From IMG/VR virus record IMGVR_UViG_3300020185_000016: 64,000 nt of DNA. One strand, 5' to 3'. Under the pieces are notes generated by a model. The model saw only the letters and a program-made list of their open reading frames with translations, made no database searches and was not told where the DNA came from. Shown here piece after piece: positions 10,029-61,199 of the stretch. Positions within the stretch are counted from its first letter, which is position 1. The number at the start of each line of letters is the position of its first letter. A program made the position numbers and the translations under genes. Source of the DNA: a virus.

Positions 10029-10105
10029 TGGTACTCCCCGAGGGACTCGAACCCCCAACCTAAGCGTTATGAGCACTCAGCTCTAACCAATTGAGCTAGA
10101 GGAGT
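10029..10105 (-). tRNA. tRNA with CAU anticodon (probably Ile2; Met not excluded)
   Basis: Full cloverleaf, loop CT-CAT-AA, encoded CCA; C4-G69 and C5-G68 match TilS determinants. Confidence 0.9.
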
Positions 10106-10110
10106 ATATT

Positions 10111-10194
10111 TGGTGGGGGGTAATGGAATCGAACCATTCGTGAGTCACCTCGGCGGAGTTACAGTCCGCTGCCACACCTTGTAGCATACCCCCC
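10111..10194 (-). tRNA. tRNA-Tyr(GUA)
   Basis: GCGGA-CTGTAAC-TCCGC, long variable arm, CCA. Confidence 0.93.
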
Positions 10195-10275
10195 GATTAT
10201 ATAATTGGACCCTTATTCATTATCCGATTACCGGCAGTCTATATCAGGTCTCACCCGCTGGAGGGTGTAGTGTTT

Positions 10276-10303
10276 TGGTATGGGTGGTGTGATTCGACCC
10301 CAC
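10276..10303 (-). pseudogene. 3' tRNA remnant (T-arm, acceptor strand, CCA)
   Basis: GTGGG-GTCGAAT-CACAC-CACCCAT-A-CCA; no 5' half. Confidence 0.5.
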
Positions 10304-10313
10304 ATTATTCTTT

Positions 10314-10445
10314 TTAGCGATCTTTAATTTCATAAACTTCTTTATAGATATTACCAATATCTTTTGCCCCTTGATTATAACCAACAAGCCATCCAATTGC
10401 GCCGCCACAAATAACTAAACAACCAGCAATTAAAACCATTTCCAT
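10314..10445 (-). CDS. Small membrane protein (43 aa)
   Basis: Hand-translated MEMVLIAGCLVICGGAIGWLVGY... Confidence 0.55.
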   Translation of the reverse strand: MEMVLIAGCLVICGGAIGWLVGYNQGAKDIGNIYKEVYEIKDR

Positions 10446-10471
10446 AGTAAACCCCATTATATATTTTTAAT

Positions 10472-10546
10472 TGGCTCCCCAACTTGGATTCGAACCAAGG
10501 ACACACGGATTAACAGTCCGATGCTCTACCGCTGAGCTATTGGGGA
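10472..10546 (-). tRNA. tRNA-Asn(GUU)
   Basis: Cloverleaf, CT-GTT-AA, CCA. Confidence 0.95.
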
Positions 10547-10572
10547 ATATTATAATATTATATATCTTTTAA

Positions 10573-11193
10573 TTAAGATGATGTTTCGAGAGAATTGCCA
10601 TTTTTATCACATTCAGTAATAACTGGATTACAACGCATTTCAAAATAATTTTCTACAAAAGTCCAACCCAATGCTTCAATACCTTCTTGATAGTCTTCAT
10701 CGTACGTCGCTTCAATTTCGTCTATCATTTTATCAACATCTGAAAGCTTAGGTCCACTTGTTCTAATGTCCCAAATGTCTTCCCAAAAACAATCATCTAC
10801 ACAAATCATTTCGGCATCTGGATAGTCTTCAGTAATATCAACATATTCCTCATCTATAGATGGTACTAACATTTTATGCATAATTTGAAATGGGGCCATA
10901 TCCGGATCTACAATAATATTATTGGATTCATCAATAATATGAAACCCATGTTGATCAGCAACATCTTCAATATTATTATAATATTCAGATGCATTAATCC
11001 ATTCAGCAATTTCGGCATCAGTTTCCGGCACTTCAATTAACCACTCACCCCAACGCCATCCCATTTCTTTTGAAAGATAGGCCCATTTACCAATATCTTT
11101 TTCATCGTTAGTTAATTCGTTAAGCGGGCGTTTAAAAGTATAAATTTCAGTAATAGCTTTTTTATAAGAAGATTCTAATTTATAATATTTCAT
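10573..11193 (-). CDS. Acidic hypothetical protein
   Basis: 206-aa ORF with GGA RBS. Confidence 0.75.
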   Translation of the reverse strand: MKYYKLESSYKKAITEIYTFKRPLNELTNDEKDIGKWAYLSKEMGWRWGEWLIEVPETDAEIAEWINASEYYNNIEDVADQHGFHIIDESNNIIVDPDMAPFQIMHKMLVPSIDEEYVDITEDYPDAEMICVDDCFWEDIWDIRTSGPKLSDVDKMIDEIEATYDEDYQEGIEALGWTFVENYFEMRCNPVITECDKNGNSLETSS

Positions 11194-11218
11194 ACTGTTA
11201 ATCCTATAATTAATTTGG

Positions 11219-11292
11219 TGGAGCGGGTAAGGAGAATCGAACTCCTATCATCAGATTGGAAATCTGAGGTCTTACCATTACACAATACCCGC
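11219..11292 (-). tRNA. tRNA-Gly(UCC)
   Basis: TCAGA-TTTCCAA-TCTGA; ends T-CCA followed by a second CCA. Confidence 0.95.
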
Positions 11293-11339
11293 TTAATATT
11301 ATTCTTCCATCAACGATTTGAGTTTTTTAGCTTCTTGAG

Positions 11340-11430
11340 CTTGTTTTTCAATAGCTCTATTTACAATCCCAATATTCTACGAACAGCCACAGGATCATCG
11401 GTCATAATGCTGCCACCGTCATTCATCTGC
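11340..11430. repeat. 91-bp direct repeat, copy at 11340
   Basis: 89/91 identical to 11605..11695 by manual alignment. Confidence 0.9.
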
Positions 11431-11604
11431 TTCCCAATACCTACAATAAAAGTGTTTGCCACACGCATCAATCTCTGCTTGTGGATAACCTTGTTCCAAC
11501 AGCCAAGGAATAATACTCTCATCTTCGAGGAAGTCTGCTGGCAAGGGCTTAGGAAACCCATACTTCCATCCGCTGGGCGGATCACACATCAATAGTTTCG
11601 ACAT
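11419..11604 (-). CDS. Small hypothetical protein bounded by the 91-bp repeats
   Basis: MSKLLMCDPPSGWKYGFPKP; ATG abuts one repeat copy, stop lies inside the other. Confidence 0.7.
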   Translation of the reverse strand: MSKLLMCDPPSGWKYGFPKPLPADFLEDESIIPWLLEQGYPQAEIDACGKHFYCRYWEADE

Positions 11605-11695
11605 CTTGTTTTTCAATAGCTCTATTTACAATCCCAATATTCTACGAACAGCCACAGGATCATCAGTCATAATGCTGCCACCGTCATTCATATGC
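11605..11695. repeat. 91-bp direct repeat, copy at 11605
   Basis: Contains 3' end of gene 11626..11832. Confidence 0.9.
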
Positions 11696-11832
11696 TCTAC
11701 AATTTGTTCAAAATAAAAGCGAGCATCCGCATCTTCATCCAAAAGGCTAGCTGCAGTTCGAAAGAAGTTACGTAACTTCATATCACTTGTGCCATCATTG
11801 GCCGCCGCTTTATATGTTTTACCTCGTCTCAT
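11626..11832 (-). CDS. Hypothetical protein
   Basis: MRRGKTY...DDPVAVRRILGL; start uncertain (11832 or 11781). Confidence 0.6.
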   Translation of the reverse strand: MRRGKTYKAAANDGTSDMKLRNFFRTAASLLDEDADARFYFEQIVEHMNDGGSIMTDDPVAVRRILGL

Positions 11833-11834
11833 CT

Positions 11835-11963
11835 TTAATAAAGCATCCTCATACAAGTAAAGAAGCTGTTTTCTTCTAAACAGTCGCTCCAGATGTGTGT
11901 TGAGTACCATCCAATCAATACAAGACCAAGTGTAATTGCAATTCCATAAATTAACTTTTCCAT
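11835..11963 (-). CDS. Small membrane protein (42 aa)
   Basis: GAGG RBS; MEKLIYGIAITLGLVLIGWY... Confidence 0.6.
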   Translation of the reverse strand: MEKLIYGIAITLGLVLIGWYSTHIWSDCLEENSFFTCMRMLY

Positions 11964-11979
11964 TGTTATTTCCTCTTAT

Positions 11980-12063
11980 TGGTACCCGCGGCCGGACTCG
12001 AACCGGCACGCCTTACGGCCACAGATTTTAAGTCTGTTATGTCTACCATTCCATCACGCGGGC
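11980..12063 (-). tRNA. tRNA-Leu(UAA)
   Basis: ACAGA-CTTAAAA-TCTGT, long variable arm, CCA. Confidence 0.95.
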
Positions 12064-12069
12064 TAACTC

Positions 12070-12297
12070 TTATTTGTCCATCAATTCAGCTTTACGCTTT
12101 TCAACAGCTGCAAGTCGCTGTGCTTCTAATTCGATACCAGCTTCTTTATCACGACCCATAACCAGCAAAATGATTGCCGAAATAAGAGGCGAAATCAATA
12201 GTGCGACTACAAACCAAAGCCATCCATTTCGGCCCCAATTGTTAGCCCAATAGCCAACTAGTGCTGAAAACACTACTGCAATTAAAATAATATCCAT
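12070..12297 (-). CDS. Small two-TM membrane protein
   Basis: GRNGWLWFVVALLISPL motif. Confidence 0.75.
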   Translation of the reverse strand: MDIILIAVVFSALVGYWANNWGRNGWLWFVVALLISPLISAIILLVMGRDKEAGIELEAQRLAAVEKRKAELMDK

Positions 12298-12326
12298 TTA
12301 CTCTTCCTTAAACTTTTTTCGATGTT

Positions 12327-12386
12327 TGGAGTCAAGCCAGGGAATCGAACCCACTTACCCATTTTTATCTCTTACACAATACTTTA
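12327..12386 (-). pseudogene. Degenerate tRNA remnant
   Basis: GGG-TTCGATT-CCC..GCTTGAC-T-CCA; GTATTGTGTAA matches the tRNA-Gly D-arm start; no anticodon arm. Confidence 0.45.
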
Positions 12387-12465
12387 TGGTGATCTCTGTA
12401 GGACTCGAACCTACGACCTAGTGCTTAGAAGGCACTTGCTCTAAATCCTGCTGAGCTAAGAGACC
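12387..12465 (-). tRNA. tRNA-Arg(UCU)
   Basis: AGTGC-CTTCTAA-GCACT, CCA. Confidence 0.95.
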
Positions 12466-57283: not shown

Positions 57284-57305
57284 AATTTCCAATTAATTGG
57301 TTAGT

Positions 57306-58100
57306 TTAGAATGCAAAGCTTAATTCAATTGAAGGAGAAAAATCTTCACTATTTAAATTATAATTTGCGCCTGTGGTAAGCTCAGCGCCCGCAATACCAT
57401 ATACAAATTCGCCACCAATATTTTGTAGCATATCAGTGTCGTCACCATTAATATATGTTGTAATTACAGATTGCTTTGCTACAAGCTCATAACCTATTGC
57501 TGTAGTGTCTACATCATAAGATACTGCACCGCCAACTGCGGCAACACCAAGATCAACACCAGTAACGCCGGCGCCAAATACAGTATTTTCAGTATTTAAG
57601 TTATAATCAGCAGCGGCAGTAATTTCAATTCCAGCTACGGATGGGAGTACAATTGCGCCCTGTACATTGCTAATATCTGTAATATCGGCAGCAATATCAG
57701 TAAATCCGATAGCCGCAGAAATTGCACCCATATTTACTTGTACAGATTCAGCCATTGCTGGAGCAGTAAGTGTTTGCTCGCCTTCGGCACCTGGCATTAC
57801 ACCATTGTCATCGCCAATTGCAATATCGATACCGGCTACTTGTGTGCCAATTGTCCAATTATCAAGAGTAACACCATTTCCGTCTGTTGCAGAAAAGTCA
57901 AGGTTTACAGTTGAAATACCAGCAACATCAATACCAAGATCGAATGTTGGAGTTGCGGCCCATTTATCTGCAGCGGTTTCTGCAAATGTTAAAACAGCTT
58001 TACCAGATAATGTTGGGCCATATGGCAGTACTGTAGTTTCAGCATATGCTGCACCAGCAAATCCTGTTACAAGTGCAGATGTGATAAGTAAATTACGCAT
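57306..58100 (-). CDS. Porin-like outer-membrane beta-barrel
   Basis: Signal peptide AAYA-E; amphipathic strands; terminal SFAF. Confidence 0.8.
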   Translation of the reverse strand: MRNLLITSALVTGFAGAAYAETTVLPYGPTLSGKAVLTFAETAADKWAATPTFDLGIDVAGISTVNLDFSATDGNGVTLDNWTIGTQVAGIDIAIGDDNGVMPGAEGEQTLTAPAMAESVQVNMGAISAAIGFTDIAADITDISNVQGAIVLPSVAGIEITAAADYNLNTENTVFGAGVTGVDLGVAAVGGAVSYDVDTTAIGYELVAKQSVITTYINGDDTDMLQNIGGEFVYGIAGAELTTGANYNLNSEDFSPSIELSFAF

Positions 58101-58146
58101 TTCGTATATTCTTTCTGATTTTATAAAAATTTTAAATATTAAATAT

Positions 58147-58314
58147 GCCACTTTTCTGTTGCTAAGCAAGTGGCCAGCTCCCTGTGTTTATGCAGCTAGT
58201 GCATAACCAGATGGTGCAAAGTTATTATTTGCAGTTATAGTGTTTGATCTATACGCGATCATCCGGTTAACTCCACTTCCACTTTCACACCTGTCGATCC
58301 TAAATGTCAGCCCC
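58147..58314 (-). ncRNA. ssrA: Two-piece tmRNA, coding piece (tag ANNNFAPSGYALAA, 58188..58232)
   Basis: 5' GGGGCTGA..GGATCGAC; resume GCA; ALAA-stop; 3' hairpin. Confidence 0.92.
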
Positions 58315-58404
58315 ATCAAAAACACTTGAAACTTCTCCATAGCATCAGGTAGCTAAATCCTTATCTACTTCATCGAATATAGGTCGTCACCTATCAAGTG
58401 CTTA

Positions 58405-58470
58405 TGGTGGAGCTGTCGGGATTCGCACCCGAGTCCAGTATGTGTCCACGTCGCTTCAACGTTAACAAAG
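58405..58470 (-). ncRNA. ssrA: Two-piece tmRNA, acceptor piece
   Basis: GAC-TCGGG-TGCGAAT-CCCGA-CAGCTCC-A-CCA; pairs with GGGGCTG giving G3.U70; 5' end approximate. Confidence 0.9.
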
Positions 58471-58554
58471 ATACTTATAAAAATTTAATGCAAGTTGTAA
58501 CTTATAATTTTATAATAATCAATTATGTGTTAATTATGTGACAATATAATGTAT

Positions 58555-58577
58555 AAAGGGGGATTATCTCCCCCCTT
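58555..58577 (-). terminator. Hairpin terminator
   Basis: AAGGGGGG-AGATAA-TCCCCCTTT. Confidence 0.65.
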
Positions 58578-58611
58578 ATGTTTTCAAGCTATTTTAATAG
58601 TAAGTATCGAA

Positions 58612-58989
58612 TTACTTAAACATGTATTTAGCTGTTGATGTAGATGCTTTATACATTTTACCATCTGCACCACATTGATAAACATATGGGTATTTTGGCG
58701 AACGAGGTTTAAATGCAAGTAGCTTATCGCCATTAGAATTTACAAATTTAGTGATACCATCAAGACGCGCAAACATTTCGAGGTTTTTTTGATCGTGTGA
58801 TTTAGCCCCTTTAATTTTTGCATTAACTTTGATTTTAACATCATCTACATCAAAAGACATATGTCCTACTTCAATATCAAGATTTGCTTTTGATGCATAC
58901 TTATTCATTACTTCTTGCAGTTCAGCACGAAGAGCCCGACAAGTTGCACGATCAAATTTTGTGAATTTTGTTTTAGTCATAGTAGTCAT
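58612..58989 (-). CDS. Basic early hypothetical protein
   Basis: GAGG RBS; KPRSPKYP motif. Confidence 0.75.
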   Translation of the reverse strand: MTTMTKTKFTKFDRATCRALRAELQEVMNKYASKANLDIEVGHMSFDVDDVKIKVNAKIKGAKSHDQKNLEMFARLDGITKFVNSNGDKLLAFKPRSPKYPYVYQCGADGKMYKASTSTAKYMFK

Positions 58990-59022
58990 GATATATTCCT
59001 CTTTGTTTTCATCTTATACACC

Positions 59023-59051
59023 TTTATAGCATATAAGAAAAGGAATGTAAA
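59023..59051 (-). promoter_or_regulatory. Early promoter
   Basis: TTTACA-N17-TATAAA. Confidence 0.85.
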
Positions 59052-59109
59052 CAGTTAATTTGCAATTTTATAATTTTTTTTAAAAATTCACGATAATGTG
59101 TTATTTTAG

Positions 59110-59403
59110 TTACAACTCATTATCGTGAATATAAAGTTGAATAAGAGCATAGTGCAATACTTTCATTAGATCCTTACGAGCATCATCTCGTGATCCTTTT
59201 TTGCCATATCTATTAGAATACTTATCTACATTGCCCATGCAAAAACCGGTTCCATGCCCACGTTCAATAATAACTTCGGTTGATTGAAATTTGCTTTGTG
59301 AATAATGTCCGGAATATGTTTTATCAATATACTCTCGGAACTCATTAATAAGTTCACCTTCTTTAAATTTATAATCAATTTTTTCCTGGATCTTATTCAT
59401 CAA
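59110..59403 (-). CDS. DUF3310/SaV-like protein of T4-like phages
   Basis: TY..HY, GFC.GNV.KY..RYGKK, DL.K..HY. Confidence 0.8.
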   Translation of the reverse strand: MMNKIQEKIDYKFKEGELINEFREYIDKTYSGHYSQSKFQSTEVIIERGHGTGFCMGNVDKYSNRYGKKGSRDDARKDLMKVLHYALIQLYIHDNEL

Positions 59404-60704: not shown

Positions 60705-61199
60705 TCATTTATAAAATATATGACTATCAATTTGTTTAGTCACTTTGAAAGATGCTGACCAATATGGGTTAACATAATCAGCATGATAAAATAAAGCGCC
60801 TGCAGTGGGGTCATTTTTATTAAAAGCATAATCATATAATACTGCATGCGAAACTTGCTTAGCTTTTTCCCAAGCTTGGGAATTTTTTGGGTTGTCAGAT
60901 TTTCCGTCATGAGTCCAGCTAAACTGTTTATTTTGCCATACAACACCACAGATAGTATTCGGAAACTTTTTAGAATTAACTCTATTTAATGTTACCCAAA
61001 CTACTGATGCTTGCCCAAGCACACTTTGATTTCTAGCTTCAAAATATACATTTTGCTGCAAACAATGTATTTCTTTATTTGAAAACGACTTAACGAATTC
61101 CTTTGCTTCGGCCTGCTGAATTGAAATATATCCGCCAATACACATTGCTGAAGCTAATGCGGTATTAGTAACTCCGGATAAAATGTTAGATATTTTCAT
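60705..61199 (-). CDS. SleB-like cell wall hydrolase
   Basis: CL..NVYFEAR.Q, NRV, FPNTICGVV, QFSW, ALFYHADYV.P.W. Confidence 0.93.
   Translation of the reverse strand: MKISNILSGVTNTALASAMCIGGYISIQQAEAKEFVKSFSNKEIHCLQQNVYFEARNQSVLGQASVVWVTLNRVNSKKFPNTICGVVWQNKQFSWTHDGKSDNPKNSQAWEKAKQVSHAVLYDYAFNKNDPTAGALFYHADYVNPYWSASFKVTKQIDSHIFYK

Follow-up and report, generated by a model that had tools for sequence, protein, structure and literature searches.

A probably functional, circularly permuted tmRNA gene of alphaproteobacterial type in a T4-like marine myophage lineage

The window, that is, the whole stretch of 64,000 nucleotides analysed here (viral record IMGVR_UViG_3300020185_000016), was found to contain a circularly permuted tmRNA (ssrA) gene on its minus strand. 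ARAGORN called a permuted tmRNA in the window at 58097-58498(-) with the tag peptide ANNNFAPSGYALAA. When the 64-kb window was searched with Rfam, two models matched over their full length: RF04321 (tmRNA_permuted) with 103.1 bits (E = 5e-19, model positions 1-213) and RF01849 (alpha_tmRNA) with 72.3 bits (E = 9e-18, model positions 1-355), the gathering cut-offs being 47 and 50 bits, respectively. In the competition within the tRNA/tmRNA clan (CL00001), the alpha model was retained. The match of the locus to tmRNA models is far beyond chance. The initial annotation, made from the letters alone, had described a circularly permuted two-piece tmRNA encoded by a phage; the sequence, the permuted call of ARAGORN and the matches to both the alpha and the permuted covariance models concur with this reading of an alpha-type gene in phage DNA.

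The order of the gene is permuted: the 3' tRNA-like half, ending in CCA, comes first, and a spacer separates it from the 5' half and the mRNA-like domain that follow. All of the parts that had been named (acceptor piece, 90-nt spacer and coding piece) were found on the minus strand within 58144-58470, and the features are collected in Table 1. The 5' limit of the acceptor piece differs by tool, ARAGORN placing it at 58498 and RF01849 at 58519. The alanine-type acceptor stem proposed for the two pieces was recovered as well: GGGGCUG pairs with CAGCUCC (58415-58409) through G1-C, G2-C, G3.U, G4-C, C5-G, U6-A and G7-C, and is followed by the discriminator A (A73) at 58408 and a genomic CCA at 58407-58405. 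G3 at 58312 stands opposite U at 58411, which is the alanine identity pair G3.U70. The pairing of CACAUACUG with CAGGUGUG (P2), also proposed at the outset, was seen as a helix of 8 bp with one bulged A and agrees with the Rfam structure line.

In the mRNA-like domain, PK1, a possible pseudoknot in this copy, lies upstream of the resume codon; its stem 2 is clear, and its stem 1 has just about 2 bp (CG/CG) in the window copy. The tag is read from the codons GCA AAU AAU AAC UUU GCA CCA UCU GGU UAU GCA CUA GCU GCA UAA. In the 3' pseudoknot, S1 is formed by GAGC (58180-58177) with GCUU (58167-58164) and S2 by GCCACUU (58174-58168) with AAGUGGC (58153-58147), and the loop bears the alpha-type motif AGCAACAGAAA.

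Table 1. Features of the permuted tmRNA gene and its flanks, in the order in which they are met on the minus strand
Feature	Position	Strand	Basis or remark
Intrinsic-terminator-like hairpin, 11 bp with U-rich tail	58553..58579	-	Terminator scan
Two overlapping sigma-70-like promoter candidates, TTGTCA-18-GATTAT and TTAACA-18-AATTAT	58504..58544	-	Just upstream of the ARAGORN boundary
Acceptor piece (3' tRNA-like half): outer-helix 5' strand, P2 strand, T-arm, acceptor 3' strand, discriminator A, encoded CCA	58405..58466	-	Sequence, ARAGORN, Rfam
Long-range helix, 5' strand GUUAAC	58461..58466	-	Rfam structure line
P2 strand of acceptor piece, CACAUACUG	58436..58444	-	Sequence, Rfam
T-arm, 5-bp stem UCGGG/CCCGA, 7-nt loop UGCGAAU	58416..58432	-	Sequence, Rfam
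Acceptor 3' strand, A and CCA	58405..58415	-	Sequence, ARAGORN, Rfam
Intervening sequence, exactly 90 nt	58315..58404	-	Predicted to be cut out on maturation
Coding piece (5' tRNA-like half, mRNA-like domain, 3' pseudoknot)	58144..58314	-	ARAGORN, Rfam
Acceptor 5' strand GGGGCUG	58308..58314	-	Sequence, helix table
P2 strand of coding piece, CAGGUGUG	58286..58293	-	Sequence, Rfam
Long-range helix, 3' strand GUUAAC	58266..58271	-	Pairs with 58466-58461, joining both pieces
PK1-region hairpin UGAUC(GCGUAUA)GAUCA	58245..58261	-	Aligned copies
Tag reading frame, resume codon GCA, 14 codons (ANNNFAPSGYALAA), stop UAA	58188..58232	-	ARAGORN, codon comparison
3' H-type pseudoknot	58147..58180	-	Rfam, aligned copies
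Downstream 264-aa gene, N-terminal signal peptide MRNLLITSALVTGFAGAAYA	57306..58100	-	Sequence, locus comparison

Because the window helicase is closest to cyanomyophage helicases, a cyanobacterial-type permuted tmRNA was considered. This assignment was dropped, since the alpha model wins the clan and alpha-type features are seen in the tag and in the pseudoknot loop (AACAGAAA). The window tag begins AN(D/N)NFAP, as in cellular alpha tmRNAs (compare ANDNFAPVAVAA in low-GC alphaproteobacterial genomes), and the acceptor and T stems of the low-GC alphaproteobacterial copy L149 (31% GC locally) are identical to those of the window. The T-loop differs, being UGCGAAU (tRNA-like) in the window and GGCGGUA (alpha-typical) in L149. 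The success of the alpha model, the start of the tag and the identity of the L149 stems together assign the window RNA, as judged from its sequence, to the alpha type.

Almost all ORFs of the window lie on the minus strand, the GC content is about 34%, and the genes include class I ribonucleotide reductase subunits, a DnaB/gp41-type helicase and T4 RNase H. The helicase shares 60-66% identity with its counterparts in Phage C48C1 and marine cyanomyophages, and no match to it was found in the record of Pelagibacter phage Mosig. When all window ORFs were compared by tblastn, Phage C48C1 was matched by 33 ORF hits at about 49% identity, which reduce to about 27 distinct loci once opposite-strand shadows are discounted, whereas Mosig was matched by 9 ORF hits (about 8 loci) at about 40% identity. 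The many matches to C48C1 as against the few to Mosig indicate that the carrier lineage differs from the Mosig/Melnitz/HTVC008M group. By its gene content, the carrier is assigned to the T4-like marine myophages as a distant relative of Phage C48C1 outside that group. Phage C48C1 lacks a permuted tmRNA, whereas Mosig has one.

The nearest viral record (22.8 kb) has 20% of sampled words in common with the window and is rated 12% complete, and no tmRNA was found in it. Its completeness suggests a genome near 190 kb, of which the window is a part. The region 57800-58800 was nearly complete (0.95-1.00 of sampled words) in at least 14 marine and estuary metagenome runs dated 2014-2025, as well as in four metatranscriptome runs. 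Therefore, the carrier phage is widespread, abundant and recurrent in marine and estuary metagenomes.

The whole tmRNA gene gave no blastn match at E 1e-5 among 50,697 cultured-phage records; at E <= 1, the same records gave only T-arm matches of 30-50 nt, including Mosig SsrA and tmRNAs of Brevundimonas, Mycobacterium and Gordonia phages. Related copies were found among uncultivated viruses. A letter-identical 32-nt T-arm/acceptor module (58405-58436 in the window) was present in 22 IMG/VR viral contigs (L001-L022) from different samples. In 20 of these contigs RF04321 scored 95-118 bits, and in the remaining two the gene was cut at the edge of the fetched locus. The tags called by ARAGORN in the related copies form one family, ANDN[FI]AP..[YF]ALAA, with a few variants. 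The acceptor GGGGCUG/CAGCUCC-A-CCA was unchanged across 12 phage copies and reads GGGGGUG/CACCUCC in Mosig.

Covariation was read from an alignment of 10 or more distinct phage copies and from direct tabulation of the helices. Compensatory variants were found in the long-range helix (GUUAAC/GUUAAC, GUAAU/AUUAC, GAUUC/GAAUC and CUAAC/GUUAG, with UUACU/AGUAA in Mosig), in PK1 stem 2 (UGAUC/GAUCA, UGACU/AGUCA, UGACC/GGUCA, UGGCA/UGCCA, UGGCU/AGCCA) and in S2 of the 3' pseudoknot (GCCACUU/AAGUGGC, GCGACUU/AAGUCGC, GCAACUU/AAGUUGC); the variants of S1 were GAGC/GCUU, GAGU/ACUU, GGGU/ACCU and GGGC/GCCU. The energies of the inter-piece duplexes (-12.9 kcal/mol for cognate vs -10.8 kcal/mol for non-cognate pairs) discriminate poorly, the helices being short and rich in AU and GU pairs. 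The 14-codon length of the tag was retained in 9 of 10 distinct copies. Among these nine copies, 12 of 14 third codon positions were variable, as against 7 of 14 for first and second positions each, and within the last five codons 65 of the codon differences were synonymous and 28 were non-synonymous. The tag frame thus looks translated, and in the phage tmRNA family selection acts on RNA structure and on tag peptide alike.

These compensatory helix changes, together with an open tag frame whose last codons change mostly synonymously, argue that the gene is functional and not a relic. A non-functional passenger, left over from a host ssrA locus or integration site, or else a contig of cellular DNA, was considered, since integration at tmRNA genes is common and temperate phages can carry pieces of such genes (PMC9004378). 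What is found here is a complete gene and no 3' fragment, with covariation and synonymous change over 10 or more distinct phage copies, in a setting of T4-like gene content and of synteny conserved in viral contigs. No integrase was detected among the proteins scanned, which were part of the window ORFs, and the exact 32-mer of the acceptor module had no match in about 186,000 prokaryote species genomes. The passenger reading is therefore largely refuted, and we regard it as scarcely credible. The locus is very probably a functional, circularly permuted ssrA gene of alphaproteobacterial type belonging to a lytic T4-like marine myophage.

The spacer of the window is closed by a stem of 10 bp (AAGCACUUGA/UCAAGUGUUU), which is set 1 nt downstream of the CCA and 5 nt upstream of G1. 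The spacer contains no ORF of more than 9 codons, and its fold, which includes the closing stem, is unremarkable (z = -1.8). A closing stem of 8-12 bp, differing in sequence from copy to copy through compensatory changes, was found in 13 of 13 copies examined, Mosig included; these stems begin 0-2 nt after the CCA and end 2-6 nt before G1. Spacer lengths were 29-164 nt in phage copies vs 2-35 nt in the cellular copies examined. The transcript of two-piece tmRNA is known to be cut by tRNA-processing enzymes (PMC11915505). A stem-closed spacer is the expected precursor architecture of a two-piece tmRNA, and the window transcript is predicted to be processed. Contigs from the four metatranscriptome runs, available as assemblies only, cover the locus evenly, spacer included, and display no ends; they may derive from DNA or from the precursor. 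The contigs from these RNA runs break repeatedly at 58145-58190, in the conserved 3' pseudoknot, probably by branching of the assembly graph among related strains.

Some related copies carry additional sequence in the spacer. In L006 (5436-5587, minus strand) and L011 (2921-3084, minus strand), spacers of 152 and 164 nt are nearly filled by a basic ORF of 46 and 48 codons, respectively. The two products (MRIPMKGGDEFDGLDRKSKGF... and MKKRIKMISGDEFDALSKKAKNY...) have in common the motif GDEFD.L and the tail GERK..KR.YNKR.RK, and from its sequence the ORF looks like a conserved small gene inside the excised part of the precursor. In L001 (5303-5419, minus strand), a 117-nt spacer holds a T-arm-like hairpin, ACAGG-UUCAAAU-CCUGU, which is possibly a tRNA fragment. 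Identical tmRNAs occur in L014 and L020, and all three, on contigs of 112, 246 and 342 kb, carry a different tag, ANTNAAPAMAKLAA.

No phage SmpB was found in the window, either with an HMM built from five alphaproteobacterial genes (best E = 0.07) or by tblastn, which gave nothing significant; Pfam SmpB was likewise absent from five related viral records, including a 342-kb record that is 92% complete. Since no SmpB of the phage was found, the host SmpB would be used, and we infer that the RNA must also depend on AlaRS and EF-Tu of the host. The following course is proposed. The gene would be transcribed as a single precursor in which the acceptor stem is continued by the stem-closed spacer of 90 nt. 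Host tRNA-processing enzymes would remove the spacer, RNase P cutting at G1 (58314) and 3' trimming proceeding to the CCA (58405), while both pieces would remain joined through base pairing. Host AlaRS would charge the RNA with alanine, and host SmpB and EF-Tu would act as its partners, their compatibility being assumed. Ribosomes stalled on broken mRNAs would then be rescued and the nascent chains tagged for proteolysis. The likely benefit to the phage would be a high rescue capacity and the recycling of amino acids while host transcription and host mRNA are destroyed during infection.

An RNA that has to compete for the SmpB of the host might instead act as a decoy, occupying SmpB, AlaRS or ribosomes and thereby blocking host trans-translation. 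There is a precedent: according to a passage in PMC11915505, a tmRNA-like RNA of mycobacteriophage DS6A, which has no CDS, was reported to inhibit trans-translation when expressed in E. coli. In the window RNA the tag frame is complete, from resume codon to stop, and the RNA belongs to a family with selection at the peptide level; a pure decoy would need neither. Selection on both structure and tag peptide speaks against a pure decoy as it does against a relic, and we consider inhibition very improbable as the role of this RNA.

Active trans-translation with a tag specified by the phage could also serve a takeover of the host, in which the phage tmRNA replaces that of the host and the new tag changes the protease or adaptor used or speeds the recycling of amino acids from host proteins. 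This idea was raised by the authors of the Melnitz study (PMC9004378). The tags of low-GC alphaproteobacteria end in PVAVAA or PVAKAA, whereas those of the phage family end in [YF]ALAA (...YALAA in the window), and the tag is under purifying selection. The cellular tags compared here are those of low-GC alphaproteobacteria, which may not be the host, and the ending ALAA also occurs in some cellular alpha tags (L146, L148 and L151). No phage protease or adaptor was identified. We therefore hold a takeover of this kind to be somewhat unlikely and prefer ordinary ribosome rescue with host partners as the function of the RNA.

The surroundings of the gene were also analysed. The terminator-like hairpin upstream of the tmRNA (Table 1) ends the gene at 58612-58989 and sets it apart from the tmRNA unit; five terminator-like sites were found, vs 0.6 expected in shuffles. 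Promoter-like sites were no more frequent than expected by chance (4 vs 4.0). A sub-threshold sraA match at 58544-58623(-) (29.9 bits with a cut-off of 56, E = 0.046) overlaps the hairpin that ends the upstream gene and most likely reflects no more than that terminator. At nine or more related viral loci, too, the 264-aa gene lies directly 3' of the tmRNA. Its product matched no Pfam or PHROG family and no cultured-phage protein; in the ESM Atlas, its first neighbours were clusters made up of viruses only, and Gram-negative porins (Porin_4, score 0.95) came after these. The protein may be an outer-membrane beta-barrel encoded by the phage. A SleB-type cell-wall hydrolase (PF07486, 91 bits) is encoded near the tmRNA at 60705-61199(-); several related viral loci likewise have this gene close to their tmRNA, and it occurs in Phage C48C1. 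A cluster of six tRNA genes (Met-CAU, Tyr-GUA, Asn-GUU, Gly-UCC, Leu-UAA and Arg-UCU) is located at 10029-12465(-), and the related contig L003 carries Leu-UAA, Cys-GCA and Arg-UCU tRNAs about 1.7 kb from its own tmRNA.

Phage tRNA genes have been proposed elsewhere to offset defences that target tRNA. Six such genes are present here, and from what trans-translation is known to do on truncated mRNAs it is plausible that the tmRNA clears ribosomes stalled by mRNA interferases, anticodon nucleases or Cas13-like systems. However, no defence or anti-defence locus in the window is linked with the gene, its neighbours are the porin-like secreted protein and small unknowns, and no experimental test of such a role was found in the literature. 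Counter-defence is accordingly judged an unlikely function, and general rescue of stalled ribosomes during infection is retained as the preferred one.

The presence of an alpha-type RNA had been taken to point to the host group. This conclusion could not be upheld. The identical acceptor module occurs in contigs that have almost nothing else in common with the window, including the 342-kb contig mentioned above, and in the published case of Melnitz the alpha-type ssrA belongs to a phage of a gammaproteobacterial OM43 host (PMC9004378). Because the exact module is absent from the prokaryote species genomes and common to unrelated phages, and in view of the Melnitz precedent, an alpha-type RNA does not fix the host. 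Other approaches to the host gave little. A blastn comparison with 401 sampled alphaproteobacterial genomes yielded merely matches of the size of the T-arm or the tag, and a degenerate T-arm pattern, tried as a host clue, was uninformative, as it matched Caulobacterales and many unrelated phyla. No information on the host of Phage C48C1 was found in the literature. The porin-like downstream gene only suggests a Gram-negative host.

From these comparisons, the RNA type appears to follow exchange between phages at least as much as it follows the host, and it is an unsafe predictor of the latter. It is conceivable, and we put it forward tentatively, that the copies represent a phage-only tmRNA lineage, with a 32-nt module that is invariant across otherwise unrelated marine phages (the present T4-like phage, several other types of contig and the jumbo-size contig of 342 kb) and absent as an exact string from about 186,000 prokaryote species genomes, and with the spacer as a variable cargo slot of 29-164 nt. 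If so, the ribosome-rescue RNA would be a mobile module exchanged by phages, and its type would say little about the host. The combination of an invariant acceptor module with a variable, stem-closed spacer that occasionally holds a small gene may merit more attention than the gene itself.

Two-piece tmRNA genes of phages have been published before. Those of Melnitz and Mosig were described by Buchholz et al. 2022 (PMC9004378), whose count was 53 two-piece tmRNAs (50 of them aquatic) in 18,146 phage genomes and 17 in 47 Melnitz-like contigs; a tmRNA database of 2025 lists 79 bacteriophage tmRNAs (PMC11915505). The alpha two-piece tmRNA itself (RF01849) goes back to the Caulobacter model, for which a passage in PMC9004378 cites Keiler et al. 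2000. Unlike the cellular alpha tmRNAs, the gene in the window is borne by a phage and has no linked smpB.

Like the genes of Mosig EXVC030M (MT647606, SsrA at 111467-111805) and Melnitz (PMC9004378), the window gene is an alpha-type permuted tmRNA gene of a marine T4-like myophage, and the order of its parts is the same: an acceptor piece with CCA, a stem-closed spacer, a coding piece, a tag ending in ..LAA and a 3' pseudoknot with the AACAGAAA loop. The Mosig gene scores 93.6 bits on RF04321. Compared with it, the window gene is only about 77% identical in either piece, has 7 mismatches within the T-arm/acceptor module of 32 nt and carries the tag ANNNFAPSGYALAA in place of GEDNFALAA. A glutamine (glnA) riboswitch, which is a feature of the 3' domain of the Melnitz ssrA (PMC9004378), was not detected at the gathering threshold in the window, nor in 57300-59300 at E <= 1. 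The gene immediately downstream of ssrA in Mosig and Melnitz encodes a gp33-like late-transcription factor (PMC9004378), given in the Mosig record as a late promoter transcription accessory protein, whereas in the window ssrA is followed by the porin-like secreted protein. It is the carrier lineage and this local arrangement that are new here, and the present locus adds a well-characterised phage-borne, alpha-type two-piece tmRNA from a T4-like marine lineage outside the Mosig/Melnitz/HTVC008M group.
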